Shown: in pieces, positions 10,451 to 59,205 of the stretch
How the letters are laid out: each line of letters starts with the position of its first letter
Numbering within the stretch: the first letter of the stretch is position 1
Source: a virus
DNA length: 64,000 nucleotides
Virus record (IMG/VR): IMGVR_UViG_3300018080_005419
Direction: 5' to 3' (one strand)
Notes under the pieces: model-generated
Databases searched by the model: none
What the model saw: only the letters and a program-made list of their open reading frames with translations
Told to the model about the DNA's origin: nothing
Position numbers and translations under genes: made by a program

Positions 10451-10852
10451 TTGTCAATTATGTTTAGGATACTTGTTGGTTTTATTCTTATTTTGAGTTA
10501 TTCTGGCAATATTAATAATGATAAAAAGCCATATTATGTTGAGGTAAGGGCAACAGCATATTGTCCTTGTGAAAAATGTTGTGGAAAATTTGCAGACGGT
10601 ACAACATCAACAGGTAGAGACGCTTATTTACCAGGAATAGCAGTAGATCCAAAGAAAATACCCTTAGGAAGCCATGTGGATATTCCAGGATACAAAAGAG
10701 GCCCAAATAAAAATGGTTCTTGGATTTTATGTGACGATGTAGGTGGAAAAATTAAAGACTGGCATATAGATGTTCGATTTAAAACACATCAAGAAGCTTT
10801 AAACTGGGGTGTAAAAAGGGTTAAGATTCGAGTGCATCCTAAAGCAAACTAG
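10451..10852 (+). CDS. 3D (Asp-Asp-Asp) domain cell-wall-binding/lytic transglycosylase-like protein
   Basis: ATAYCPC..TSTG..IAVDP..IPLGS..DDVGG.IK..HIDV; N-terminal hydrophobic signal. Confidence 0.88.
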   Translation: MSIMFRILVGFILILSYSGNINNDKKPYYVEVRATAYCPCEKCCGKFADGTTSTGRDAYLPGIAVDPKKIPLGSHVDIPGYKRGPNKNGSWILCDDVGGKIKDWHIDVRFKTHQEALNWGVKRVKIRVHPKAN

Positions 10853-11222
10853 CTATTTTAAGGATTCTAGCCACTCTTTTATAGCGGTATTTAGGACGGA
10901 TATAACGATTAAAATATCTTCCTTTAGAGGGCGCTTCAAGTAACTTCTGTACTATTTCTTCTGGAACATTAGCGTACTGAAATATACCTCTTTTATGGAA
11001 TCTAATCTCCAGCAATCTTTTACGTTTATTATATCGAATACTATCTATTGTTCGTGAATCATTGCCTATTTCGAACTCTTTAAATCCTGTCCACTTTTCT
11101 TTAATCCAATCTTTAACTCTTTGTAGAATTCCGCCCTGAGCAATAATAATTTTAACATCACCAGTATAATCTGATGATGTCAAAAGTTTAGAAGACCTGA
11201 CTATATAAATTTCATTAGCCAT
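10839..11222 (-). CDS. KTSC domain protein
   Basis: SRTIDSIRY..LLEIRF..G.FQYANVP....LL.APSKGRYFNRYIR. Confidence 0.88.
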   Translation of the reverse strand: MANEIYIVRSSKLLTSSDYTGDVKIIIAQGGILQRVKDWIKEKWTGFKEFEIGNDSRTIDSIRYNKRKRLLEIRFHKRGIFQYANVPEEIVQKLLEAPSKGRYFNRYIRPKYRYKRVARILKIASLL

Positions 11223-44728: not shown

Positions 44729-45015
44729 TGGAGCCACCGGAGGGAATCGAACCCCCAACCTGCGGTTTCTCCCATTTTCGACTTTCATCGACATCAAAAA
44801 GATGCTTATGGGATGGACTTTCCCTTCACCATATCATTTTACTGACTTAGGTGGGCCGTGTCAAGTCTCTACACTCGCATTTCTGCTAGCTCGGGATTGC
44901 CATCAGCATTATCTGTTAAGGTTTCCCCGATTTAGCGGCCTCCACCATATATATTTCTATATATGGGTGCAATTTTACTTACAAAACCGCTGCTCTACCG
45001 TTGAGCTACAGTGGC
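44729..45015 (-). tRNA. tRNA-Thr(UGU) interrupted by a group I intron (exons 45015-44981 and 44768-44729)
   Basis: Joined exons give GCCACTG/CGGTGGC acceptor, GCGGT-TTTGTAA-ACCGC anticodon arm, TTCGATT T-loop, encoded CCA. Confidence 0.9.
44769..44980 (-). ncRNA. Group I self-splicing intron, 212 nt, IC3-like, no ORF
   Basis: Inserted after U36, ends in G; P AAATCGGGGAA, Q AATCCCGAGC, R GTAGAGACTTGA, S AAGGGAAAGTCC; P7 GAGACT/AGTCC; P3 GGCCG/CGGCC. Confidence 0.88.
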
Positions 45016-45034: not shown

Positions 45035-45422
45035 GAGAAGTTTTACAAAAGAAAGCCCACTACTTTAGTTGTGGGATGAATTTTGTCTACTTTCCTCTTG
45101 ACAACGATCATAATTCCTCTTATAGTAACACATAAGTTCTTTGAAAACCTGGGTATATGGTTGCCTACAATTAAAGCCTTTGTAGGTGTAAAACCCTAAA
45201 ACGGGTACAAAGTGAGTTTATATAAGATAAACTTAAAAGAATTCATGACGGGTAAAATCGCAGCTTTCTTTCTAAATTTAAACATTCTTATATACCTCAA
45301 AAACCAAATTTTATGCAGAAGGGGCATCTTCTGTTGGTTTAGATACTGTAAGACTATTCCTTCGGATAGCTAGTATCGCTTAAGCCAGAATCCCACGATC
45401 TTTAGTCGTGGGAGTATGTCAA
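45035..45422 (+). mobile_element. Non-autonomous IS200/IS605 (IS608-like) element with a tnpB 3'-end/omegaRNA relic
   Basis: TTAC target, AAAG guide plus hairpin CCCACTACTTTAGTTGTGGG at left; GAAT plus CCCACGATCTTTAGTCGTGGG plus AGTATGTCAA at right; relic frame KFYAEGASSVGLDTVRL. Left cut could instead follow TTAC at 45043-45046. Confidence 0.85.
45098..45126 (+). promoter_or_regulatory. Sigma70-type promoter inside the IS relic
   Basis: TTGACA-17 bp-TATAGT. Confidence 0.75.
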
Positions 45423-46974: not shown

Positions 46975-47049
46975 GAGCCAATCTCCTTTTACGTTTTAAA
47001 TACTTGCTTATATTATATCTTGATAAATAGAAGATTACTCAAAATTCCA

Positions 47050-47251
47050 ATAAAAAACCACCGAGTTTCAGCCCGGTGGTGAAGTCCGTAAGTCTAATGC
47101 TATCACCACCTAAGCTCATTTTTATTGAGCTTTGTCGTTGTAGTTCTTATGGTTGTGGTGATTACGCTAAAGTTCATGTTTTCTCACAATTCTTATCACT
47201 TTCTAAAAACAGACTAAAAATCAATATAAATCATAAAACAAACAAAGTCAA
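47050..47251 (-). promoter_or_regulatory. Threonine-type transcription attenuator (promoter, leader, antiterminator, terminator)
   Basis: TTGACT(47251-47246)-17-TATATT; seg1 ATCACCAC, seg2 GGTGGTGA, seg3 TCACCACC; terminator CCACCGGG-CTGAAA-CTCGGTGG-T6. Confidence 0.88.
47103..47177 (-). CDS. Thr-rich leader peptide MNFSVITTTIRTTTTKLNKNELRW
   Basis: 7 Thr codons in 9 positions using all four Thr codons; ThrL-like; directly precedes the terminator. Confidence 0.85.
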   Translation of the reverse strand: MNFSVITTTIRTTTTKLNKNELRW

Positions 47252-47265
47252 GTTCTTTTTAATTA

Positions 47266-47529
47266 TTAAACATCCATATACTCCTTTAACAAACGAAAAA
47301 CTCTGTATGTATTATATCCAACTATCGTAGCCTTTTGATGTATTTCTTTAGCCTTCTCTTTAAAACCATGTGCTGCTAATATGCTAGCTGCTTTAACAAT
47401 CATAGCATATCCGTCTATATCTTTTTCTGGATCTAGTTTCATCTTGGGTTTCATCGTATTACCTAATTTAAATAACTCTGGCAACCAAATTGCAAGTATA
47501 CTATTGAAATAACGCAAATCAAGTGGCAA
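47266..47529 (-). CDS. Hypothetical protein (start uncertain, possibly MKPKMK)
   Basis: ORF track; plausible composition. Confidence 0.5.
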   Translation of the reverse strand: MPLDLRYFNSILAIWLPELFKLGNTMKPKMKLDPEKDIDGYAMIVKAASILAAHGFKEKAKEIHQKATIVGYNTYRVFRLLKEYMDV

Positions 47530-47632
47530 ATTGTAAACTAATGATAATAATCACCCCATAGTATATCAATAATCACTTAAAACAATAAACAAAATATTTC
47601 TCTTTCTATTTTGGGGTAAAGGGGTGACAACA

Positions 47633-48892
47633 ATGTATAAACAACGGGGTTCTGCTCTAATAATAACAATGATTATGTTTATGATAGCAACAGGAATAAT
47701 AACAGCATTATATATAGTAGTTTTGACAGCAAGTAAAAACAGTCAAATTCAATCTCAGTATTTAGAAGCATTAGAAAAATCACAAATAGGATTAAACATA
47801 ACATTTAGAAAAATTAAAATGACACCACTGAAATACAATAGTAGTTATGAATTAATGTGTTTTGTAGAGCAGGACCCCGACACAATAGGAAATATAAAAA
47901 CAATTGATAATAGCAATGTGGGCTATAAAGTACAAGTTCGCTCAGCATATCTAGCACATACATTAGGAGCAGTTGAAGAAACATATTTAAAAGAAATACA
48001 ATATGAAGTTAGAAATGATCCTATCAATCCAATTTTTGACTATTATGAAATCAGGGCAAAATCGAAAGGAGTTGGAGAACATGACTTTCAAAGAGGCGTT
48101 ATCTGCTTTGCTGAAATCCGCAAATCTGATGCAGCCATCCCCAGTGCGCTTTATATTGATAATGACCCTAATCCTGTTTGGAATGGGGCTTCTTGGCGTG
48201 TTAGCGGTAAAGATCATTCAATGGCTCCGACAAGTGGAGGTGGAGGAATCATGGAAGAAGATGATTACCTCGTCTTCTCCGATAAGCATAAGCCAGCAGT
48301 TGGATACGATGGAGAATATTCTGCTTTGGGATTTACCTCATCAGAAGAAGATCAAATCTCTACCTTTAACGAAAGTGGAACAGAAGTCACAGGAGAACAG
48401 GCATTTGTCAATACAAATATCGACCTACGAAAACTCGCCTGTAAATTCATCGGAGGAGAACCAACAGACCCATTAAAACCAGATTATAGCAGAGTTGACA
48501 ATACTACTATGTCTTCATCTGGTCTTGGAGATATTGATGATTTTAGAGTTACATATATTGGTGGAGATGCTGGAACTGTTGCCGGAAAAATAACAGGAGG
48601 TGGAGTTTTAGTAATCGATGGAAGTGTTAGTATTGTAGGACAATTAACGTGGTATGGATTGGTTATTGTTTTGGGCGATATGAATATGAGCGGTGGAGGG
48701 GCAGGAATTCACGTTTTTGGATCTATTATGGTTGAATCAGAATCGGTAGTTTCGGGACAAGCAGATATTTGGTATAGCGAAGAAGCATTGCAAAAATTAA
48801 TGAAAGATTGTGAACCTATTATGATGGTCGATGTGATTCCTATGGCTTATCAATTAATAGAAAAAGGTGATGATAAGATGGAAGATTTATAG
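47633..48892 (+). CDS. PilX-like N-terminal pseudopilin-domain protein
   Basis: QRGSALIITMIMFMI..; C-terminal GGGVLVIDG..GLVIVLGD..FGSIMV; start ATG 47633 (or GTG 47624). Confidence 0.75.
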   Translation: MYKQRGSALIITMIMFMIATGIITALYIVVLTASKNSQIQSQYLEALEKSQIGLNITFRKIKMTPLKYNSSYELMCFVEQDPDTIGNIKTIDNSNVGYKVQVRSAYLAHTLGAVEETYLKEIQYEVRNDPINPIFDYYEIRAKSKGVGEHDFQRGVICFAEIRKSDAAIPSALYIDNDPNPVWNGASWRVSGKDHSMAPTSGGGGIMEEDDYLVFSDKHKPAVGYDGEYSALGFTSSEEDQISTFNESGTEVTGEQAFVNTNIDLRKLACKFIGGEPTDPLKPDYSRVDNTTMSSSGLGDIDDFRVTYIGGDAGTVAGKITGGGVLVIDGSVSIVGQLTWYGLVIVLGDMNMSGGGAGIHVFGSIMVESESVVSGQADIWYSEEALQKLMKDCEPIMMVDVIPMAYQLIEKGDDKMEDL

Positions 48893-48898
48893 ATTTTG

Positions 48899-48975
48899 TG
48901 GTGGGCGACATAGGACTCGAACCTATAACTTCTTGCGTGTAAAGCAAGTACGCTAGCCAATTGCGTCAGTCGCCC
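48899..48975 (-). tRNA. tRNA-Val(UAC)
   Basis: CTTGC-TTTACAC-GCAAG anticodon arm; full cloverleaf; CCA. Confidence 0.95.
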
Positions 48976-49038
48976 ATATAATATAAAAGAGCAAACAATA
49001 TATTCTATCGTCTGCTATTTTAAAAGTCAAATTATATT

Positions 49039-50892
49039 TTAATTTTCTCTTAACAATTCGATAAATGTAGTCTTATCTAGTGCTTCAGGAGACAGATCAA
49101 CAAAGTCTTTTTCAGGCTTTTCATGAACTACAATTGCTTCAGCTTTTTTAAGAACATCATTAAGTTCCAGAGAATTGATCAAACTAGAAACAAAGTATTG
49201 TCTCATTCTCTCAGCATTAACATTGAAAGAAAAACTTATAGCGTTTCCAAGAATAACATTAGCAAAATAAACTCTATTTTCGTCCTCTACATTAGTTACA
49301 AGTCCTAATACATTCTGTCTTTGTTCTATAAGAATGTTAGTAGAAGCAATAATGTTATTCGGATCGACCATGTAATTATTGCCAAACCTCTTTATCTGTT
49401 CTTGAGCAACGATAATTTTAGTAGGAACAGGACTATTTTCATCATGATTATAATAATTCAATGCTAAGATTTTCGACGTTACTTTCCCCTTTTTAACATA
49501 GAATAATTCACTTGCCCCTTTTGGCTTTGGAGCATCAGTTACATCACCAGAAAATAGAATCTCGCAATCAGAAGATCTATAACTTCCATCCCAACCAATT
49601 TTTCCACCAGCATCAGATATAGACAAATCCAGATCTATTCTTCTATCTGTATTTGTCCAATGAACTCCAACAATCAGATCTTCAGGTACAGACACATAAG
49701 TACCTGTTGGAAGACTGCCGGTAAATTGTTTTTCTGTTGCTGGCATTGCATAATGAACCATTTTAGGAATATAAATCGTCTTACCTTCAACATTCTTTTT
49801 AATATTTTCCGCAATAGAAGAAACAACTGCATCTAAAGCCTCATTGGTTGCAGAAGTCTCGGTCCATGCAAAATCAGCAGACCATCCACGACCATTGCGA
49901 ACACGGTATACAATTGCCTCAGGTGAATTCAATCTAAAATTAAGAGCATATGCTAAACGCACCTTTCTGAAAATAGAAGCATTGCTAAGCTTTTTATTTA
50001 AGGTCTTCATATCAAGATCTTTATTCTTAATATGAGAAGTCACACTGTTTAAATAATCCTCAGGCATTGGTTTGTGCATCTTGTTAGCTTGTTTTCTCAG
50101 ACGATTAAAGAAGGTCTTATTGCGACTAATAGACTTCAAAGCCAAGAAAATGGGTTTAAATCTAAAGAAAATAGACGCTAAATCTTCGGGAGCATTTTTC
50201 AATAACTCATCCAAGAATTTTCCATTTGAAATCTTGATTTTGTTAATTAATTCGTTGTTTTTAATCAAAAGAGAAGTATCTGTCAATTTGCTGATAACAT
50301 AACGAAGATATTCAACAGGATCAGAAGGACAAATACCATAGAAGTCATAGAGACGAGCCTTTAATTCTCTATTTTTAATCTTTTCAACAAAGGCACTATC
50401 AAACTTGCTCTGTTCAACAATTGTCATAATATCGTTGAGAGATTCTTCTGATAAAGCAATCCCACAACCCAACTTCACAATTGCCTCAAGAACTTCCTCA
50501 GAGGTCATAGCTTTTACTACAACAAGAGGAATTCTTTCAGCTTCTGGAAATTCTAGAACTTCACGGGGAATGTATACGGAATCCTCGCTATATATACCCA
50601 TTGCTTCAAATCCATAGGTAGTAATATAGTGAAGAATTTGCTGCATAACCAATTGGAGTTCTGAAGATTCTTTAACAATCTTCCAAGACTTATGAAAGGC
50701 AGCATTGGCCTTTTCACCAGAAATGCCGACTACTGTTTCTATCAAATCTAAAAGTTCAGTATCAGGGCGAATTGCTGGTTGAAGAATATAACCATTCTTG
50801 ATAGTGCGTTCAAGAATGTCATCAGAGATTTTCTTCTTTCTTTTGTTCTCCACCAATACAGCATTAAATAGTTTCAGCAATTCGGTCTTCAT
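49039..50892 (-). CDS. Large helical protein with C-terminal TerD-like domain
   Basis: C-terminal VGVHW..DLDLS..GWDG.YR..LFSGDVTDAP..GASELF; AGGAG RBS. Confidence 0.65.
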   Translation of the reverse strand: MKTELLKLFNAVLVENKRKKKISDDILERTIKNGYILQPAIRPDTELLDLIETVVGISGEKANAAFHKSWKIVKESSELQLVMQQILHYITTYGFEAMGIYSEDSVYIPREVLEFPEAERIPLVVVKAMTSEEVLEAIVKLGCGIALSEESLNDIMTIVEQSKFDSAFVEKIKNRELKARLYDFYGICPSDPVEYLRYVISKLTDTSLLIKNNELINKIKISNGKFLDELLKNAPEDLASIFFRFKPIFLALKSISRNKTFFNRLRKQANKMHKPMPEDYLNSVTSHIKNKDLDMKTLNKKLSNASIFRKVRLAYALNFRLNSPEAIVYRVRNGRGWSADFAWTETSATNEALDAVVSSIAENIKKNVEGKTIYIPKMVHYAMPATEKQFTGSLPTGTYVSVPEDLIVGVHWTNTDRRIDLDLSISDAGGKIGWDGSYRSSDCEILFSGDVTDAPKPKGASELFYVKKGKVTSKILALNYYNHDENSPVPTKIIVAQEQIKRFGNNYMVDPNNIIASTNILIEQRQNVLGLVTNVEDENRVYFANVILGNAISFSFNVNAERMRQYFVSSLINSLELNDVLKKAEAIVVHEKPEKDFVDLSPEALDKTTFIELLREN

Positions 50893-50907
50893 ACTTTTCT
50901 CCTAAAA

Positions 50908-51104
50908 ATGGGCGAGAGGTATTCTGGCGATTTGGAATCGAATTTAAGGAACCTCATTTGCCCATCAAATATAAAGAAGGCGAGGAGTAATTCTTTCTCC
51001 AATAGAAAATATTAAGGAACTCCCTTTGCCTTCAAAAATTAATAAAAAGGGGCGAGAGGTAATCGATTTACAGTCGTTTGAAAAAAGGAACCTCTTGTGC
51101 CCCT
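50908..51104 (-). repeat. Three tandem ~58-nt structured repeats (50908-50965, 50976-51033, 51048-51104); candidate ncRNA array
   Basis: Covarying outer stems (ATGGGC/GCCCAT, GAAGGC/GCCTTC, AGGGGC/GCCCCT) and inner stems (GAGGT/ACCTC, GGAGT/ACTCC); invariant TCCTT and TC bulge; variable loop. Confidence 0.85.
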
Positions 51105-51357
51105 AATCATACATTTTAGTATACAGAAAATAGCATTACTTTTCTGGCGCTTAATTAAATTGTTTTTTGACTCTACTTGAAACACCGACCAAAGCATTTT
51201 CAAGCGTATGGGATATTATACGCTCTTTGTAATTAATGCAAGTATTTTTCCTAATTTTTGTTTTTTAGACGAATTAAATTATTAAATTGAGCAAATTTCG
51301 ACCTATTGCATTTAATATACAACTATTGAAATATAAAATACTTATAAATTAAATATA

Positions 51358-51483
51358 TCACTTATCATCATACGTAACAGGAGGTGGTGGAATTATTTTA
51401 TTTTCTCCAGGATAAGGACCACCATTTCTTGCACAACCAGATAAAATAACCAACATGCCAATAATCAAAATAGCTTTTTTCAT
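51358..51483 (-). CDS. Small Pro-rich lipoprotein (41 aa)
   Basis: MKKAILIIGMLVILSGC lipobox, PPPP; GGAG RBS; not in ORF track. Confidence 0.6.
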   Translation of the reverse strand: MKKAILIIGMLVILSGCARNGGPYPGENKIIPPPPVTYDDK

Positions 51484-51496
51484 TGTTCTATTCTCC

Positions 51497-51964
51497 TTAG
51501 AAATTTACAAACCATGCGCTCTCAATTTCTTCTGGTGTCAAAGTAATAATTCCTGGTCTCCCACGAGCAACAAGCTGGGGTTCTACAAAAATAACTTCTC
51601 TGTTATCTCTATCTCCTACAATTGCGACATTAATAGCATGACCACCTCCCCCACCACCTTCTGCTCTAGCTTTTGCCATATAATAAACTACACCAAAAGA
51701 AAGTCCCTGAGCCGTTGATTGCTTTGTATTATAGTGAGCCCATTGCATATCAACAAACATAAGCCAAGCAAAATTATCACAATCATTATTTGGCTCCCAT
51801 TTATCGAGATTTTGATCCTTTAATTTTCGAGCCCACCACTTTGGAAAATCGTTTTGAATATAATCTCTACTAGGAACTCCATAGTCTTTATCGCATATGT
51901 GTAAAGAAGCTCTATACATTCCAACATCATTAATTAAAGTACCCAATTCTCTTGCGCTGATCAT
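51497..51964 (-). CDS. Papain-like/agglutinin C-terminal (MOA-related) domain protein
   Basis: DCDNFA and GHAINV..FVEPQ Cys-His pattern. Confidence 0.65.
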   Translation of the reverse strand: MISARELGTLINDVGMYRASLHICDKDYGVPSRDYIQNDFPKWWARKLKDQNLDKWEPNNDCDNFAWLMFVDMQWAHYNTKQSTAQGLSFGVVYYMAKARAEGGGGGGHAINVAIVGDRDNREVIFVEPQLVARGRPGIITLTPEEIESAWFVNF

Positions 51965-52071
51965 ACTAATCCTCCTTTTTAAAACAATACTTCAACACAA
52001 CTAAATACAAATAATGCAAAACAAATAAAACGATTCCAGGAGACAAAACATATGGAAACCAACTTTTGTAA

Positions 52072-52263
52072 TCAATCACTTCTATCAACCTTCTTGTAAC
52101 AATTCGTACATAAAATTTGATGAGATATTAAATATTCTCCATTTCCACAGTCAACTTTCCTAACTACCAAAGCACCATCATAAGGTGGCTCTGGAACGCA
52201 CTTACAAAGCATACAACGACTGCTTTTCATAGCCAATTCTATTTCATTATTTGTGAGGAACAA
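52072..52263 (-). CDS. Small Zn-finger hypothetical protein
   Basis: CMLC..CTNC. Confidence 0.5.
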   Translation of the reverse strand: MFLTNNEIELAMKSSRCMLCKCVPEPPYDGALVVRKVDCGNGEYLISHQILCTNCYKKVDRSD

Positions 52264-52819
52264 TTTCTACTCTCCCCGATCCATTACATAAAACACAAAT
52301 ATAGGAATTCGGAGGCACACTTCTATCGTGTCCATCTTTCCCGCTACCATTACACCAAGGACATTTAATTACAATATCTTCCGTATCTATAGTTGTATCT
52401 TTTAATTCTAAAGCATCGGCAATATCAGAAATTAAACGCATCCAATTTTTATGATCTTCTCGTAATGTCTCTATGTCATCAGTTTTGCATTCTATTTCTT
52501 TTTCTTCTTCCAATTCTTTTTGTACTTTGACTTGCTCTACTCCAAAACATTTTTTTAGTACTGAATAAAACCACTCTTTATCTTCTTCTGTCAATTCTTC
52601 AGATTCATCATAACCAGCATCAAGTCTAATTCCTGAATGTATAAAATTACGCTTATATCCCCAAATTTGTAATCCTATAATTTTTCCACTATTATCAAAT
52701 GGATGAGTAACAGTTAAAATAGGATTAACCCATTCGGAAAAACCACCTTCCTCTTCCCATTTAACTTCAAGTATATCTCCTAGCTCGTTATACCATACAA
52801 TTGGCTTAAACTTTTCCAT
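52247..52819 (-). CDS. Hypothetical protein with C-terminal DnaJ-type Zn finger
   Basis: CPWCNGSG..CVLCNGSG. Confidence 0.65.
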   Translation of the reverse strand: MEKFKPIVWYNELGDILEVKWEEEGGFSEWVNPILTVTHPFDNSGKIIGLQIWGYKRNFIHSGIRLDAGYDESEELTEEDKEWFYSVLKKCFGVEQVKVQKELEEEKEIECKTDDIETLREDHKNWMRLISDIADALELKDTTIDTEDIVIKCPWCNGSGKDGHDRSVPPNSYICVLCNGSGRVEIVPHK

Positions 52820-52843
52820 TGCTAATATTCTTCTTTTAAAATA

Positions 52844-53349
52844 ATAGGCTCTGGCGGATTTTTCTACTCTGAAAGTTCCTGAACTAATTCATTTGCTCTA
52901 GTCAATCCATTTGATAATTCGTTTATGATTATCTTTAATTGTTCAGCATCAGAAAGTCCATAACATCTTTTTGAAATATCATTATTATCTGGGATGCATT
53001 GAAGAGGATTATCTGCTCGATCAGCTTTATTTGCCTCCCACATTGCACTCCAATTACTTAAAATATTTAGGAATACTTGATCTCCAACTTCAACATCGGC
53101 AGCAATTCCAACATCAGAACCATAATCATATTGAGTAATTAATCCGTTATCATGCTCTAAACGAATGATGATATACTTAGTATCAGAACAATTCGTGCAA
53201 CCTTGATTTTCATCATTACAAGCACATTCTTTCAATTTTCCTTTTGCAACTACTACACCTTCATGCTTCTGTTCTGTGACACGTTTCATTGCTTCTTTGA
53301 TTCCTGCCATTGTTTTCTCCTTCTCCTGATAAGCTCCGCCAGAGCCTAT
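52844..53349. repeat. Perfect 15-bp inverted repeat flanking one gene
   Basis: ATAGGCTCTGGCGGA at 52844-52858; reverse complement at 53335-53349. Confidence 0.85.
52864..53310 (-). CDS. Hypothetical protein enclosed by the inverted repeat
   Basis: Double GGAG RBS; 148 aa. Confidence 0.7.
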   Translation of the reverse strand: MAGIKEAMKRVTEQKHEGVVVAKGKLKECACNDENQGCTNCSDTKYIIIRLEHDNGLITQYDYGSDVGIAADVEVGDQVFLNILSNWSAMWEANKADRADNPLQCIPDNNDISKRCYGLSDAEQLKIIINELSNGLTRANELVQELSE

Positions 53350-53370
53350 ATAAGGATTTTTTTTGGCAAC

Positions 53371-53598
53371 TTATTTATTTACCGCACCATAATTTGGCAA
53401 CGCTCCTTCTGGCATTTGCTGAACTCCAATTAACGCTCTTAAAATTGACTCTTTGTAGATTCTTTGTTTCATTGGATCCATCATAAGACTAGCAATATGT
53501 GTTCTTAGCTCTGGTTCTCCTAAAGTATTATCTCTAGTATTATATCCCATCTGTTTGCGATAATTACGCATCCATCTTCCCATTATTCTATTTTTCAT
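53371..53598 (-). CDS. Hypothetical protein
   Basis: 75-aa ORF overlapping the GT stop. Confidence 0.55.
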   Translation of the reverse strand: MKNRIMGRWMRNYRKQMGYNTRDNTLGEPELRTHIASLMMDPMKQRIYKESILRALIGVQQMPEGALPNYGAVNK

Positions 53599-54334
53599 TC
53601 AAAACTCCCCATTCTTTTCCTTTATTTCTAACAATAATTCCTTTTCTACTTAAATACAATTGACGATTATGTTCATGTAAAGGTCTGGTTCTTCCTGGTC
53701 TGCTGCTTCTTGAATGATATAAATGAACACATTGAGCATCTGTTTGAACATAATGACAATTCAAATCCAATAACCTATCTACAAAATCCCGATCATCAAA
53801 AGCCATTCCTATAAAATCTTCGTCATATCCCCTAATTTTTTCATAATGTGATCGATGCATGGAAAATAAAAATGGAAGTTTCACATTTAAATTTCCTAAT
53901 TTATTATAGATTTCTATTAAATTATTACCACTAGATTCTAACGCATTTAAAAATAATTTATTATCATCTTTTCCTTGAGGTATTCCCAAAGCCAATTTAT
54001 CATCTAAAACCGGATCTATAAGTTTATTTAGTACATTTCCAATATGATAAATTTCTGCACAAGATAAAATAATAATATCACCAGAAGATCGCTTAAATCC
54101 TATGTTAAAAGCAAAACCAGGAACTCTCCATTTTTCTCCATCTAAATTTCTGTGACCTGTAAATATATACTTACAACCATATTCTTTTGCAATTTGTTCT
54201 GTTTGATCATGAGTACCATCATTTATAACAATTACCTCAAGATCATGTTTTAATTTTTGTTTCTTTATTGTTGGAAGAGTGTGTTTGAGAAGATGATCCC
54301 TTTTAAATGTTGTAATGAGCAAACTAATTAACAT
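53588..54334 (-). CDS. GT2-family glycosyltransferase
   Basis: LITTFKR, VINDGT, FNIG, GYDEDF.G.AFDDRDF, HLYH; start trimmed to exclude the tRNA. Confidence 0.85.
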   Translation of the reverse strand: MLISLLITTFKRDHLLKHTLPTIKKQKLKHDLEVIVINDGTHDQTEQIAKEYGCKYIFTGHRNLDGEKWRVPGFAFNIGFKRSSGDIIILSCAEIYHIGNVLNKLIDPVLDDKLALGIPQGKDDNKLFLNALESSGNNLIEIYNKLGNLNVKLPFLFSMHRSHYEKIRGYDEDFIGMAFDDRDFVDRLLDLNCHYVQTDAQCVHLYHSRSSRPGRTRPLHEHNRQLYLSRKGIIVRNKGKEWGVLNEK

Positions 54335-54363
54335 AATTTTAAATCTTTCTGACGAACTATTTT

Positions 54364-54449
54364 TGGTAGCCAAGGTGGGATTCGAACCCACATGGGATTT
54401 CTCCCACTTGTTCTTGAGACAAGCGCGTATCCCGTTCCGCCACTTGGCC
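54364..54449 (-). tRNA. tRNA-Leu(CAA)
   Basis: CTTGT-CTCAAGA-ACAAG; long variable arm; CCA. Confidence 0.95.
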
Positions 54450-54459
54450 TAAAATCATT

Positions 54460-54972
54460 CTAAGTCATAATCCATCTTTGCCATGTCTTATGTGTACGAA
54501 GATCAATAGCAGTAATAATCATAACATCACGCTGAGGAATAAATGGACGACAACGAAGCTTCATACCAGCTTCCTCAGGTGTTCTGTTATCCTTTGCACA
54601 ATTGCACTTTCTACACGCAGCTACAACATTTCCCCACTTATGCTTTCCTCCACGACTAGTAGGAAAAACATGATCTATTGTACCGCTCTTAGAAGTCAAA
54701 CGAGTACCACAATATTGACATTCGAAACTATCACGACGAAGCACATTTTCCTTGCTAATCGAAATACTTTTAAAAGGCACACGAACATAAGTTATTAGAA
54801 TCAAAACAGTAGGAAGCTTAAAAACAGCGCCACCTACCAATTTGATATCATGGTATTCATCGTGTCCAGATGGCTTTTTAGCTTTACCATTAACCATCTG
54901 CATTACAGCTTCTTTCCAGGTAATAACATCGTGTACTTCATAACTTGCATTCAGCAATAACACACGCTTCAT
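54460..54972 (-). CDS. HNH endonuclease (McrA/HNH_5 type)
   Basis: VLLLNASYE, NVLRRD..CQYCG, TIDHV.P.SRGG..W.NVVAAC..CN..K. Confidence 0.9.
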   Translation of the reverse strand: MKRVLLLNASYEVHDVITWKEAVMQMVNGKAKKPSGHDEYHDIKLVGGAVFKLPTVLILITYVRVPFKSISISKENVLRRDSFECQYCGTRLTSKSGTIDHVFPTSRGGKHKWGNVVAACRKCNCAKDNRTPEEAGMKLRCRPFIPQRDVMIITAIDLRTHKTWQRWIMT

Positions 54973-55042
54973 TTTATCATCCTCCGTTCATATTTCTCCT
55001 TTATAATTTAGCGTATTTATTTAATTTTTTCAAGTATTAAAT

Positions 55043-55116
55043 TGGCAGGAGCGGAGAGAATCGAACTCCCAGCTAAAGGTTTGGAGCCTTTCATGTTGCC
55101 ATTACACCACGCTCCT
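55043..55116 (-). tRNA. tRNA-Trp(CCA)
   Basis: AAAGG-CTCCAAA-CCTTT; G73; CCA. Confidence 0.95.
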
Positions 55117-55143
55117 TTTTATATTTTAATTCCTTTGCTTTTG

Positions 55144-55935
55144 TTAATCTACGTGCTTCTTTTTGGCAATAATCTCATCTAAAATTTTTAAATCGCTTAA
55201 ATATGCTTTATCGAAATAAGGTAATAACTCACCCCAAGAATCTGTTTTAGATAACACCAAATACGCATTTGCTCTTGCCTTATTTACGCCCCAATGCATA
55301 GCAGAATTGCCAGGACGACGATTGGGACTTAAATGAATACCATGTACAGGTCTTTCTCTATTGGGCGTAATTTTTCCGAAATAATACGTTACGATTCTAC
55401 ATATAAGTTCTTCGTCACTCATTTTGCCATATTGTCGAAAATATTCTTGCCCAATCCATTCAATATCAATTTTATCAAAATATCTCTTTGTGTCTACGCA
55501 ATGCAATCCTGTCATTCTTCCTGTGCGCCTGAGCATATTACTATAAGGAAGACGAGTTTCTTTCATAATACGACGATGAATATCTCCAAGCGATTCTTTT
55601 GTATCTCTTAAAATTAGAATATCAATATCTCCAATATAAGTTAACGGTTGTCTTGTTTTTGGAGCAACCACCCATCGCAAAGAATTAAAAATCGGGCTAA
55701 CTTTTGATTGCGGCCTTAAAAATTTTGCAGGAATTTGACGTAATGCCCATCTACTACCAAAATGATTCCTTGCAATTGAAATTAAAGGTTTGTGAGTCTT
55801 TTCAAATTGAATCTTATCATCTAAATAAATTTCCATTGTCGATTGTTTATATGTCTCTAAAGCAGCAGCAATATAAGGAATAACAAATCGATAATATTTC
55901 TGATTTGATACTGTTAAAAAGTGAACATTGTTCAA
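55144..55935 (-). CDS. Putative glycosyltransferase-like protein
   Basis: YIGDIDILI DxD motif. Confidence 0.5.
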   Translation of the reverse strand: MNNVHFLTVSNQKYYRFVIPYIAAALETYKQSTMEIYLDDKIQFEKTHKPLISIARNHFGSRWALRQIPAKFLRPQSKVSPIFNSLRWVVAPKTRQPLTYIGDIDILILRDTKESLGDIHRRIMKETRLPYSNMLRRTGRMTGLHCVDTKRYFDKIDIEWIGQEYFRQYGKMSDEELICRIVTYYFGKITPNRERPVHGIHLSPNRRPGNSAMHWGVNKARANAYLVLSKTDSWGELLPYFDKAYLSDLKILDEIIAKKKHVD

Positions 55936-55947
55936 TTTAACATCCTT

Positions 55948-56631
55948 TCAGATTTTTTGATAGCCTAGCTTTTCAAATACAACATCAGATATGTTATCAT
56001 TTACAATTTGTATTTGTGTTGAAGTTAAATCAAATGTTTGCATGTTTAAATATTTTTTTCTTTGTTCTTCAGTAAACACATTTGATTGACCGACTTTTTT
56101 CACATTACGCCAACTTGTTGTTGCCTTATTTAATCCGAAATTTCTTTCTATTTTTTGTAATGCTCCCTTGAATCCATTTATTTTGATTAGATGCTCATAT
56201 TGAATTCTAATTATTAAAGGAAGTTCTCTCTTTGGAGATATAAACCAATTTAGAAAGAATTCATTATATAGGCGACACAAATTTTGCAAACTAAAATTTG
56301 AAACTTCACCGAGAACATTTTTTGACGTTATAATTTCATCACCAGTTAATCCATTAATATTACAAATTTCAAATTCTAAATGTCTTCCTCCCATATCTAC
56401 ACAATTTCTTTGTATACTTTCAATCCATGAATACGGATTTTTACTAATCAAAATATGGAAAAAATTGTCTTCGAAGTTGAAAATATTAGGATTCACAGAG
56501 TGCTTCCAAAAATATCCTCTTTTGACATGATTCTTTATTGTTACATTTTTAAAATTAACTCTTAAAAGTTGTTCTAAATATTCTGTTCCACTTCGTTGCA
56601 GCCCTATCACAATTCCGGAAAATTCATTCAT
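55948..56631 (-). CDS. Sulfotransferase-like protein
   Basis: GLQRSGTEYL 5'-PSB-like motif; KNPYSWI.S; IQYEHL. Confidence 0.7.
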   Translation of the reverse strand: MNEFSGIVIGLQRSGTEYLEQLLRVNFKNVTIKNHVKRGYFWKHSVNPNIFNFEDNFFHILISKNPYSWIESIQRNCVDMGGRHLEFEICNINGLTGDEIITSKNVLGEVSNFSLQNLCRLYNEFFLNWFISPKRELPLIIRIQYEHLIKINGFKGALQKIERNFGLNKATTSWRNVKKVGQSNVFTEEQRKKYLNMQTFDLTSTQIQIVNDNISDVVFEKLGYQKI

Positions 56632-56749
56632 TTTATCTCTCTAAAATTCAAATCAAACGACTTACCATTATAATACTTTCTTAGCTATAAAAACCAATTT
56701 ATCTAAAAATTATAAATAACATCCTATACACCACGATCCTTTCTATATT

Positions 56750-56965
56750 TTAACAAGAATTAACTACTTTGTTAGCCAACGCATTAAGAGCAGCACTGAG
56801 ACAAATACTTGGATCACCGCCCCAAAAAGAAAATAATTGTTCATCTGTCACTACAACTCCACATCCTTTACATTTATTAACTGAATCTGCCGATGGAATT
56901 TTTGAAGTTACACATTTGTATATGTATAATTCTGGGTTATATTCCCATCGATGTGAAATGTACAT
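56750..56965 (-). CDS. Hypothetical protein
   Basis: 71-aa ORF with RBS directly after the tRNA fragment. Confidence 0.5.
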   Translation of the reverse strand: MYISHRWEYNPELYIYKCVTSKIPSADSVNKCKGCGVVVTDEQLFSFWGGDPSICLSAALNALANKVVNSC

Positions 56966-56980
56966 ATTAGTCCTTCCTCT

Positions 56981-57012
56981 AAATGCGCTCTCCCAAATTG
57001 AGCTATACCCAG
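56981..57012 (-). pseudogene. tRNA 5'-half fragment (Pro-like C1 start)
   Basis: CTGGGTA-TA-GCTC-AATTTGGGA-GAGC-GC, then no anticodon or T arm. Confidence 0.65.
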
Positions 57013-57019
57013 TTAAATT

Positions 57020-57238
57020 TTAGGGATAAATAATATTTCCCTGTTCTTCTTGCTTTTTAACATCTCTCCACGAATACCAAATACTGCTATATTTCCAAGA
57101 AGCCTCAACAGTATAATTTCCCCCACATTTAAGTTTCTTATAATACACATCTTTTTCTGCTTTTTTATATCCTTCTTCAAATGCTTCTTTTATTAATTCA
57201 GAAGCAAATTTAGCATATTGCGGCCCTCTTGCTCCCAT
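57020..57238 (-). CDS. Hypothetical protein
   Basis: GGAG RBS, MGARGPQY; ORF-track extension into the tRNA removed. Confidence 0.6.
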   Translation of the reverse strand: MGARGPQYAKFASELIKEAFEEGYKKAEKDVYYKKLKCGGNYTVEASWKYSSIWYSWRDVKKQEEQGNIIYP

Positions 57239-57257
57239 AATCAACTCCTTTAAATTT

Positions 57258-57380
57258 TGGCGGAGAGGACAGGAATTGAACCTGCACATCCGGATCCTAT
57301 AAGATTTAAAAGGAACCATTTTTGCCGGAAAGCGAATGGTAGATCAATTCCGGCGCTCTAACCATTTAAGCTACCTCTCC
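57258..57380 (-). tRNA. tRNA of undetermined isotype with a 47-nt insertion in the anticodon loop
   Basis: GGAGAGG/CCTCTCC acceptor, G73-CCA, D and T arms normal; CCGGA/TCCGG stem closes a 54-nt loop. Confidence 0.75.
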
Positions 57381-57447
57381 AAAAAAACCATTTCGAATCC
57401 TTTTATTTTATTATATCTTTGATGTTCATTGAAATTATCATTAAATT

Positions 57448-57527
57448 TGGCGGGATGTACGGGAATTGAACCCGCGATTCCTTAGCCTTGACAGGGCTAC
57501 GTGCAGAAACCACTACACCAACATCCC
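57448..57527 (-). tRNA. tRNA-Asp(GUC)
   Basis: TAGCC-CTGTCAA-GGCTA; G73; 7-nt variable region. Confidence 0.92.
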
Positions 57528-57535
57528 ATATTTTT

Positions 57536-57625
57536 TGGTGAGGATGGAGAGATTTGAACTCTCATGGCCTTTTTGCGACCACCACATTCTGAGTGTGGCC
57601 CGTATACCAATTCTAGCACATCCCC
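57536..57625 (-). tRNA. tRNA-Leu(CAG)
   Basis: CCACA-CTCAGAA-TGTGG; long variable arm. Confidence 0.95.
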
Positions 57626-57627
57626 AA

Positions 57628-57864
57628 TTAGACGTTCAGCAAATGTAACATTGCTGAAAACGTCTTTAATAGATCTTCTTTGCGAACATGAGGACCACGA
57701 AAAACTTTGCCCTCTGAAACAATTGAAAGACGAATAGCTTCTTCTCCATCATAATCAACTACTTTTGTAGCTCTTAAATAAGGAGCAACTTCAATATACT
57801 CCTGATTACTTCCGTCACGATAAACCTTTGTTTCTTCAGAAATTGCATAACCTAATAAATCCAT
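57628..57864 (-). CDS. Hypothetical protein
   Basis: AAGGAG RBS; 78 aa. Confidence 0.65.
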   Translation of the reverse strand: MDLLGYAISEETKVYRDGSNQEYIEVAPYLRATKVVDYDGEEAIRLSIVSEGKVFRGPHVRKEDLLKTFSAMLHLLNV

Positions 57865-57953
57865 ATCGTTCTCCTTTGTAACCAGGACAATTCCCGGTTA
57901 TGACAAGAACGATTATGCGAAGAAAAAACCTCCATAAAAACAAGAAAAATTTT

Positions 57954-58039
57954 TGGTGCGGTAGAGAGGATTCGAACCTCTATAGGATTTCTCCCACATG
58001 GCCCTCAACCATGCGCGTATCCCTTTCCGCCACTGCCGC
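57954..58039 (-). tRNA. tRNA-Leu(GAG)
   Basis: CATGG-TTGAGGG-CCATG; long variable arm. Confidence 0.93.
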
Positions 58040-58049
58040 ACAATCAACA

Positions 58050-58382
58050 TTATACTACCATTACAAATAATCTGGCCATTTCCCAACCTCTATCTGTAGG
58101 CTCAAATCTGGCAATAGGCGAATAATAATTTTTATTCTCTGCAAAATGAGGATCTAAATGTCCCTGATCCAAAATATCTCTGATGGTTATATTTTCATAA
58201 ACAAGAATTTTTCTTCCTTCATAATTTATACATCTCGGATATCTCACAATCATAACAAGATAAGACCCAATGTGTTCGTATTTTTCAATTTCAAAATCTC
58301 GCGGATCAGGATTTGGCAATTCTTTTTGAGTTACGCTTGGAGCATCATATGTGCTCCTTGAGCCTATTAAACAAACTCCCAT
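58050..58382 (-). CDS. Hypothetical phage protein
   Basis: GGAG RBS, MGVCLIGSRS; extension into tRNAs removed. Confidence 0.7.
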   Translation of the reverse strand: MGVCLIGSRSTYDAPSVTQKELPNPDPRDFEIEKYEHIGSYLVMIVRYPRCINYEGRKILVYENITIRDILDQGHLDPHFAENKNYYSPIARFEPTDRGWEMARLFVMVV

Positions 58383-58400
58383 AATTCTCTCCTTAAAAAT

Positions 58401-58486
58401 TGGTGCTCTCGACAGGATTCGAACCTGTATAGGATTTCTCCCGCCAGTTCCTAAGACTGGTGCGTATTCCTTTCCGCCACGAGAGC
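58401..58486 (-). tRNA. tRNA-Leu(UAG)
   Basis: CCAGT-CTTAGGA-ACTGG; long variable arm. Confidence 0.95.
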
Positions 58487-58493
58487 ATTTTAG

Positions 58494-58570
58494 TGGTGGG
58501 CAGGGGCGGATTTGGACCGCCGACCTCCACATTTTCAGTGTGGCACTCTACCGGACTGAGTTACCTGCCC
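58494..58570 (-). tRNA. tRNA-Phe(GAA)
   Basis: CCACA-CTGAAAA-TGTGG; atypical T-loop TCCAAAT. Confidence 0.92.
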
Positions 58571-58576
58571 TTATTT

Positions 58577-58669
58577 TGGTCTGCAGGGAGGGAGTTGAAC
58601 CCCCAATGTTTACCCGAAGGGACCAGTTTTACAAACTGGCACGACACAACCGATAGTCGTCTCCTGCAG
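58577..58669 (-). tRNA. tRNA-Tyr(GUA), atypical (C1:G72, A8, 5-bp D stem)
   Basis: CCAGT-TTGTAAA-ACTGG; long variable arm; CTGCAGG/CCTGCAG acceptor. Confidence 0.85.
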
Positions 58670-58673
58670 AAAT

Positions 58674-58750
58674 TGGTGGACCGGACAAGACTTGAACTTG
58701 CAGCCTACTCCTAGCCAAGGAGTCGCTCTCCCAATTAGAGCTACCGGCCC
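58674..58750 (-). tRNA. tRNA-Ala(GGC)
   Basis: G3:U70; ACTCC-TTGGCTA-GGAGT (U37). Confidence 0.9.
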
Positions 58751-58767
58751 AAAATAAATACGCTAAA

Positions 58768-58780
58768 TTGTCAAAGAGCC
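58768..58780 (-). promoter_or_regulatory. boxA-like antitermination motif
   Basis: GGCTCTTTGACAA vs rrn boxA TGCTCTTTAACA. Confidence 0.55.
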
Positions 58781-58792
58781 ACATTTAAATCT

Positions 58793-58869
58793 TGGTGTAC
58801 CCGACAGGAATCGAACCTGCAACATCCTCCATGCAAAAGAGGTACTCTCCCAGATTGAGTTACGGGCAC
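58793..58869 (-). tRNA. tRNA-Ala(UGC)
   Basis: G3:U70; CCTCT-TTTGCAT-GGAGG. Confidence 0.93.
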
Positions 58870-58880
58870 ATTTTATATTT

Positions 58881-58969
58881 TGGTCGGTGGAGGAGGATTT
58901 GAACCTCCGATCTCCTTGCGGCCTCTTCCTTATCAGGGAAGCGCTCTGACCAGACTGAGCTACCCACCG
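58881..58969 (-). tRNA. tRNA-Ile(GAU) with an unusual 16-nt variable arm
   Basis: CTTCC-CTGATAA-GGAAG; variable region AGGCCGCAAGGAGATC. Confidence 0.9.
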
Positions 58970-58991
58970 ATTATCGCTCCTTAATTCCAAC

Positions 58992-59205
58992 AAAAAAAGC
59001 CAACCGTTTTTCGGCTGGCGTTCGAGGGTTTTCTGTTTTTGCGTTTCTTTAGTTTACAGAACCTCCTCGTTCGCCAGCTAGCCACAGGGCTGCTGCCATA
59101 ATATCGGCAAAGGGCAAATAAAGTCGGTTCTCTTTATGATTCACGGTTCTTTCTCCAAATAAAAGTATCAAAGCTATTTCTACCACTTATAGACAACAAA
59201 GTCAA
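58992..59205 (-). promoter_or_regulatory. Multi-codon transcription attenuator heading the tRNA array
   Basis: TTGACT(59205-59200)-17-TAGAAA; terminator GCCAGCCG-AAAAA-CGGTTGGC-T7; antiterminator GCTGGCG.AA.CGAGG/CCTCG.AA.CGCCAGC overlapping the terminator 5' arm. Confidence 0.85.
59049..59144 (-). CDS. Leader peptide MNHKENRLYLPFADIMAAALWLAGERGGSVN (GTG start)
   Basis: GGAG RBS 9 nt upstream; codons 8-23 match the downstream tRNA anticodons. Confidence 0.8.
   Translation of the reverse strand: MNHKENRLYLPFADIMAAALWLAGERGGSVN

Follow-up and report, generated by a model that had tools for sequence, protein, structure and literature searches.

Phages often carry transfer RNA (tRNA) genes, which are usually regarded as constitutively expressed aids to codon usage or counter-defence. 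Whether such genes can instead be placed under a control that senses decoding itself is the question raised by a 64-kilobase (kb) stretch of viral DNA (IMGVR_UViG_3300018080_005419; hereafter the window, meaning the whole analysed stretch, within which all counts for this virus were made). The window has a GC content of ~32%, carries nearly all of its genes on the minus strand and contains phage-type genes such as that for ribonucleotide reductase; one of its proteins is also recorded from a contig of 280,011 bp. An initial annotation had pointed to two attenuators in it, each above tRNA genes and both with the same promoter motif, and had read them as one regulon for translation rescue. Judging from the sequence, we find it probable that codon-matched leader-peptide attenuators act in cis on two of the three tRNA-linked units; the promoters of these units belong to one host-type class, which does not amount to a proven regulon. 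This reading is built on direct observations of sequence anatomy, alternative pairings, codon statistics and covariation in relatives.

Leader-terminator modules before tRNA genes

At both sites the same elements follow one another in the same order: a promoter, a short open reading frame (ORF) and a terminator. The minus strand of the window contains four strong intrinsic terminators; two of them are the leader terminators, with stems and T-runs at 47080–47057 and 59019–58999, and the other two stand at ordinary gene ends. The module with tRNA genes immediately behind it, that of leader 2, consists of the following features.

59049–59144, minus strand: leader ORF 2, 31 codons plus stop, with a GTG start and GGAG 9 nucleotides (nt) upstream
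59014–59078, minus strand: long antiterminator hairpin of attenuator 2, formed by leader codons 23–30 as 5′ strand and a 3′ strand that overlaps the 5′ arm of the terminator
58992–59019, minus strand: intrinsic terminator 2, a GC-rich 8-base-pair (bp) stem followed by T7
57448–58969, minus strand: main tRNA array (Ile-GAU, Ala-UGC, Ala-GGC, Tyr, Phe, Leu-UAG, Leu-GAG, Leu-CAG, Asp), with two small ORFs interspersed
54364–55116, minus strand: tRNA-Trp(CCA) and tRNA-Leu(CAA), with an HNH endonuclease gene between them

About 30 nt separate terminator 2 from tRNA-Ile, too little room for a good promoter, and no strong terminator lies between the main array and the tRNA-Trp and tRNA-Leu(CAA) genes. 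With default settings ARAGORN reported 12 tRNAs, all at or above position 48899, and 11 with clear anticodons lie behind terminator 2. Its intron search added tRNA-Thr(UGU), which belongs to the other module, and a tRNA of ambiguous anticodon at 57380–57258.

The codons of leader 2 follow this array closely. Between codons 8 and 23, 14 of the 16 are read by the tRNAs behind the leader, and all 11 anticodons are covered. When 127,906 six-frame windows of 16 codons were scanned, full coverage was reached by three overlapping windows only, all of them in leader 2. Random 30-codon ORFs drawn from the codon usage of the phage covered 11 of 11 anticodons in 54 of 200,000 trials (P = 2.7e-4), and when the leader 2 peptide was kept and its synonymous codons were resampled, full coverage was seen in 2% of trials (P = 0.02). 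The choice of leucine codons illustrates the pattern: leader 2 uses four different non-TTA codons, one for each tRNA-Leu, and avoids TTA, which makes up 45% of the leucine codons of the phage and lacks a tRNA in the array. The tRNA-Leu set of the phage supplies the CTN and TTG codons and none for TTA, its own commonest leucine codon; since this tRNA is missing, the supplied tRNAs are not a simple mirror of phage codon usage.

The predicted RNA structures place a switch at the end of the leader. A full-length thermodynamic fold always kept terminator 1 (the terminator of the other module, described below) and was uninformative because the decision is kinetic; we therefore folded, in silico, transcripts cut before the 3′ arm of the terminator, masking 30 nt as the footprint of the ribosome. 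In leader 2 the antiterminator hairpin is the default fold. Its probability was ~0.8 for ribosomes stalled at codons 1–18, 0.64 at codon 19 and 0.26–0.41 at codons 20–29. As the antiterminator is the default and is lost with a ribosome at codons 20–29, termination is predicted to need translation to the leader end.

The second module, that of leader 1, resembles a textbook arrangement more closely in its pairings.

47103–47177, minus strand: leader ORF 1, 24 codons plus stop, with an ATG start and a weak Shine-Dalgarno match (weak GAG upstream)
47155–47162, minus strand: segment 1 of attenuator 1, within the Thr codons, paired with segment 2 in the minimum free energy fold
47102–47110, minus strand: segment 2 of attenuator 1, which includes the leader stop codon and, by folding, can pair with segment 1 or segment 3
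47047–47082, minus strand: segment 3 of attenuator 1 (5′ arm) and intrinsic terminator 1, a GC-rich 9-bp stem followed by a T-run
44729–45015, minus strand: tRNA-Thr(UGU), split by a 212-nt intron behind position 36 and giving a canonical tRNA of 75 nt once spliced

Among the nine codons from 7 to 15 of leader 1, seven are Thr codons, interrupted by ATA and AGA. In its minimum free energy fold segments 1 and 2 are paired and the terminator is formed. The antiterminator had a probability of 0.79–0.99 with the ribosome stalled at codons 1–16 and of 0.22–0.36 at codons 19–25. The only tRNA below leader 1 is tRNA-Thr(UGU), a gene that was found solely by the intron search because of its 212-nt intron and that default tRNA finders overlook. 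A U precedes the intron and G is its last base; an Rfam search gave no group I intron match at E≤1.

The claim that both sites are attenuators thus held up at the level of sequence, with promoter, short ORF, terminator and alternative pairings present at each. Both modules would qualify as leader-peptide attenuators on the models used here, having a short ORF behind a promoter, clustered control codons, a terminator and an antiterminator whose formation is predicted to be set by the position of the ribosome. In classical attenuators the products of the controlled genes synthesize the sensed amino acid or load it onto tRNA; here tRNA genes and unrelated ORFs lie downstream, and for this reason the modules are a variant and not classical attenuators. 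In Rfam searches only tRNA matched at the gathering threshold, and between 41000 and 60000 nothing else matched at E≤1; neither a T-box nor any other known leader family was among the matches.

Some genes of the array region are unusual in their own right. The tRNA-Ile(GAU) gene (58881–58969, minus strand) is 89 nt long and has, unusually for a tRNA of this specificity, an extended variable arm. The tRNA-like gene at 57258–57380 (minus strand) has an anticodon loop enlarged by an insert of 47 nt, and its variable loop is short. Its anticodon is UAG, UGG or UGA depending on the excision point; the UGG reading would suit the CCC codon of leader 2, which has no other match, only via four-way wobble. 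The position of the HNH endonuclease gene (54460–54972, minus strand), between tRNA-Trp and tRNA-Leu(CAA), suggests a mobile insertion inside the tRNA unit.

Leaders and tRNA blocks in relatives

Close relatives of the virus were sought in several ways. No viral, metagenome or genome contig contained an exact 32-mer taken from the window, scans with the single proteins of three neighbouring ORFs turned up no close relative, and megablast against cultured phages matched only a generic half of tRNA-Ile. A 110-amino-acid protein encoded within the array (58382–58050, minus strand) had 224 homologs, of which the nearest shares 55% identity, besides more than 500 metagenome matches. This protein has 16 invariant residues and no Pfam match, and is encoded in or beside tRNA arrays in many large phages. 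Alignment of its homologs led to 80 viral and 80 metagenome loci, and the related loci analysed numbered 170 (L001–L170).

At least five lineages (L092, L100, L110, L112 and G001/L146) have a tRNA block immediately preceded by a promoter, a short ORF with matching codons and a terminator:

L092, the closest relative: leader with an N-terminal motif in common with leader 2, covering 14 of 15 of its own, different anticodons
L100: leader covering all (a share of 1.0) of the 11 anticodons of its block
L110: Ile/His/Pro/Glu leader before a His, Glu, Ile, Pro block
L112: Leu/Ser/Cys/Tyr leader before a Cys, Tyr, Leu, Ser block
G001 (L019/L081) and its relative L146: leader with Leu/Tyr runs before a block of Tyr and Leu tRNAs only
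G001, second leader: Gln/Asn/Met/Ile leader before the gene for ribosomal protein bL12 and an Asn, Met, Gln, Ile block

The codon content of the L092 leader tracks its own tRNA set despite the N-terminal motif that it shares with leader 2. Across seven leaders, between 0.83 and 1.00 of the anticodons of each block have a codon in their own leader. The initial annotation had proposed permuting leader codons against downstream anticodons; when seven leaders were scored against seven blocks, the true pairing gave the best total score of all 5,040. Its proposal to look for the same arrangement in related genomes was borne out for the leader design, which recurs as listed, and failed for the promoter motif, as described below. 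The claim that leader codons match the downstream tRNAs is accordingly supported; for leader 2 the match is significant and the covariation in relatives agrees with it, and for leader 1 the tRNA lies 2.1 kb away.

In an unbiased binomial screen, leader A of G001 and leader 2 of the window were among the very top windows. Such a screen, made with 10 codons, has a high base rate and therefore passes over leaders in which many amino acids are sampled. Its matches in L085, L087, L088, L166 and L140 were rejected, since they lie inside long ORFs as judged from sequence reading or ORF lengths.

The pairings traced in relatives bear on a reading in which the leaders are no sensors at all. Terminator read-through is a known means of temporal control in phage development, and the short ORFs and terminators could accordingly be small early genes, small RNAs or insulators, with the tRNAs reached by read-through via a phage factor or a phage sigma. 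Wherever the pairing was traced in relatives (L092, L110 and leaders A and B of G001) the antiterminator takes its 5′ strand from the 3′ end of the leader ORF, so that there, as in the window, mutually exclusive pairings sit exactly at ORF 3′ ends; the codon statistics and the pairing permutation also argue against this reading, which we consider very improbable. The attenuator reading, with leaders matched to their blocks, is the one we retain.

Two loci carry further features of interest. The bL12 (L7/L12) homolog of G001 (L081, 7258–7635, plus strand; Pfam PF00542 at 1e-20, PF16320) is located between the second leader-terminator module and the tRNA block. In L063 a 38-codon ORF (10740–10870, minus strand) with a sigma70-like promoter has a Ser/Pro-rich end 15 nt before a Ser, Pro, Pro, Ser, Ser, Glu, Gln block. 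This short ORF near Ser and Pro tRNAs was not counted as a module, as it has no terminator; it may be a terminator-less variant, or chance.

Promoters and the extent of the shared motif

The window contains three tRNA-linked units, and the promoter sequences suggest that each begins at a near-consensus promoter of the host sigma70/sigmaA type with a TTGACTTT core.

47223–47251, minus strand: promoter 1, TTGACT, 17 bp, TATATT (−10 at 47228–47223), with an A/T-rich tract upstream
59177–59205, minus strand: promoter 2, TTGACT, 17 bp, TAGAAA (−10 at 59182–59177), with TG two bases before the −10 and an A/T-rich tract upstream
48899–49030, minus strand: promoter 3 (49030–49002; TTGACTTT core, 17 bp, TAGAAT) and tRNA-Val(UAC), without leader and without terminator

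The 11-mer TTGACTTTGTT, which the initial annotation had placed at the −35 position of both modules, has only two exact copies in the window (47251–47241 and 59205–59195, both on the minus strand). Each provides the TTGACT −35 of a sigma70-type promoter with an A/T-rich tract upstream and a 17-bp spacer. With one mismatch allowed there were 6 sites versus 3.9 expected, which is not significant. The first eight bases of the 11-mer form the core TTGACTTT, which recurs with the same 17-bp spacing in the tRNA-Val promoter. This core has three intergenic copies in the window, all at tRNA-linked promoters, where ~0.2 would be expected from intergenic composition in ~4.7 kb of gaps; a good −35 is rare at other intergenic −10-like sites in the window. 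A candidate late-promoter motif was enriched in the window at one mismatch, yet showed no tie to the tRNA units.

How much the shared 11-mer means is less clear-cut than its exactness might suggest. Given a TTGAC, six extra identical bases straight after it have an a priori probability of ~7e-4, while an identical run of at least six anywhere in 100 anchored positions has a probability of ~4%. Outside the anchor the promoter regions of the two modules are 41% identical, against ~29% expected by composition. It could be, then, that two independently strong sigma70 promoters in T-rich DNA came to resemble each other by coincidence and that the motif holds no information beyond a good −35; identity elsewhere is near the expectation from base composition, and the clear promoters of L092, L100, L110 and L112, all sigma70-like, have other −35 variants (TTGCAT, TTGCAA, TTGCCA). 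Against coincidence stand the excess of intergenic copies of the core and the tRNA-Val promoter with the same first eight bases and spacing, and on balance we regard this explanation as rather doubtful.

At the other extreme is the reading of the initial annotation, in which TTGACTTTGTT marks a dedicated regulon under one shared trans-acting factor, extending genome-wide so that every tRNA block has its codon-matched attenuator. The exact 11-mer at both modules and the confinement of intergenic core copies to tRNA-linked promoters would fit it. So would the two modules of G001, which have in common a 65-nt, ~96% identical promoter cassette that occurs exactly twice in the 50-kb record, with ORFs and terminators diverged; a promoter shared between modules is therefore not an odd idea, and the cassette was not found in other viral contigs. 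A precedent for a tRNA-array regulon defined by promoter repeats exists in Anabaena (PMC8421152, PMC10272220). Several observations speak against a regulon of this kind. Promoters 1 and 2 have in common only the −35 hexamer and 5 nt (8 nt with the tRNA-Val promoter), no operator-like repeat or palindrome was found among the shared bases, and no regulator was identified. The 11-mer was found in 0 of the 170 related loci. Finally, the third promoter with the TTGACTTT core drives tRNA-Val(UAC) from 27 nt away with no ORF or terminator between, so not every tRNA block is gated; this is the very kind of case that the initial annotation had named as contradicting its claim of an attenuator for each block. 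A dedicated regulon is, on this evidence, quite unlikely.

The initial annotation had also drawn on a single GTA, the codon read by tRNA-Val(UAC), in each leader. As GTA makes up 1.9% of phage codons, finding one in both has P ~0.15, and the link was rejected as chance.

Of the idea of a shared promoter signature there remains a common promoter class, with no trans-acting factor implied. The sequence similarity perhaps also reflects common ancestry of a promoter-leader-terminator cassette; a trans-acting regulon is not demonstrated by it.

Probable gating of tRNA genes and comparison with known systems

Several findings weigh against codon-matched gating. Between leader 1 and tRNA-Thr lie 2.1 kb with up to five ORFs (three of at least 115 amino acids and two small ones) and a hairpin-bearing stretch, and given this distance and content co-transcription of the two is an assumption. 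By standard wobble UGU reads just four of the seven Thr codons of this leader, and its Shine-Dalgarno match is weak. In leader 2 the sole Leu-CAG, Trp and Leu-UAG codons are codons 20–22, where stalls are predicted to favour termination, and array codons are only 47% of all its codons. The tRNA-Val gene is ungated, some related arrays do without such leaders (in L013 a promoter stands directly before the tRNA, L035 has no leader and L078 an unmatched short ORF), and the shared motif is short, with the post hoc probability of ~4% for such a run in anchored regions given above.

The stretch at 45035–45422 (minus strand), in the gap between the leader 1 operon and tRNA-Thr, is non-coding and flanked by two similar hairpins, and a consensus promoter stands on the opposite strand at 45098. 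It could be a break in the co-transcription of leader 1 and tRNA-Thr. The ORF directly behind the Thr leader (46974–46534, minus strand) has no Pfam or PHROG match and consists of 14.3% Thr, the highest share among the 65 ORFs of the window (mean 4.5%, next 8.7%). It may belong to what the Thr leader serves, or its composition may be a coincidence.

These features of the leader 1 region lend themselves to another reading, in which the leaders are ordinary sensors of charged-tRNA starvation, the link to tRNA genes is incidental and leader 1 controls the adjoining protein genes and not tRNA-Thr. The ORFs that intervene before tRNA-Thr, the first of them the most Thr-rich of all, would fit it, and a stalled ribosome could not distinguish a low level of a tRNA from low charging. 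No biosynthetic or aminoacyl-tRNA synthetase gene was found behind either leader, however; the tRNAs stand immediately behind leader 2, whose synonymous choice tracks isoacceptors, and across relatives leader content tracks tRNA content. We therefore hold starvation sensing with an incidental tRNA link to be unlikely, and return to gating of the tRNA genes by their own codons.

We infer from the models that the leaders are translated, that termination is regulated and which signal is sensed. A ribosome that reaches the leader end would cover the 5′ strand of the antiterminator, the terminator would form and transcription would halt before the tRNA genes. A ribosome delayed at the control codons would leave the antiterminator intact, and RNA polymerase would continue into the tRNA genes. 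The control codons would be those decoded by the tRNAs behind: the Thr run in leader 1 for tRNA-Thr(UGU), and in leader 2 at least one codon for each of the 11 tRNAs. With control codons matched to the downstream tRNAs, each unit would be transcribed more when its own codons are decoded slowly.

For the large phages of this group we tentatively suggest a wider possibility, which we would not yet back at even odds: a modular sensor-plus-supply system, in which a conserved host-type promoter cassette is duplicated within a genome and the leader that indexes the isoacceptors is rewritten as the block changes. Such modules might sense that particular host tRNAs are lost or scarce, for instance through anticodon-nuclease defence or codon-usage mismatch, and transcribe only the matching replacements. 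The shared promoter class suggests that the units fire together via host RNA polymerase, probably early, and such timing would fit a rescue role. If the gating is real, phages own a feedback sensor of host decoding capacity, and the leader becomes a predictor, readable from sequence, of the tRNAs that are important to the phage. It would also be the first case found of classical attenuation logic governing tRNA genes; in the full-text literature we found no paper tying leader peptides or attenuation to tRNA arrays or phage tRNAs.

The multivalent leader-peptide attenuators that enterobacteria have in their amino-acid operons include the thr leader (Thr, Ile) and the ilvGMEDA leader (Ile, Leu, Val), besides trpL, hisL and pheL. 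Like them, the phage modules have control codons clustered in a short ORF behind a promoter, an intrinsic terminator and a competing antiterminator whose 5′ strand would be covered by the terminating ribosome, and leader 1 reproduces the layout of the thr leader with its 1:2, 2:3 and 3:4 pairings. They differ in what is placed behind the switch, namely tRNA genes instead of enzymes or synthetases, together with a bL12 gene in one relative. Leader 2 departs further: it samples up to seven amino acids, separates isoacceptors by synonymous codons, mostly devotes one codon to each tRNA and has the antiterminator as its default fold.

T-box riboswitches likewise sense a specific tRNA and throw a terminator/antiterminator switch ahead of translation-related genes. 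In contrast to the phage modules, they bind uncharged tRNA directly and do not need translation, and no Rfam T-box match was obtained here.

The nearest published case is the trn operon of Anabaena sp. PCC 7120, a silent tRNA array that translational stress induces via the TrcR repressor, whose binding sites are direct repeats of 9 nt that overlie the −10 and the start site (PMC8421152, PMC10272220). The two systems are alike in that an extra tRNA array is off, in the phage by prediction, until translation is impaired, and in that a shared promoter signature marks a co-regulated set, a putative one in the phage. The Anabaena operon is a promoter-defined regulon with a trans-acting repressor and has neither leader peptide nor terminator, whereas the phage modules have no shared operator-like repeat and their control would be exerted in cis, block by block.

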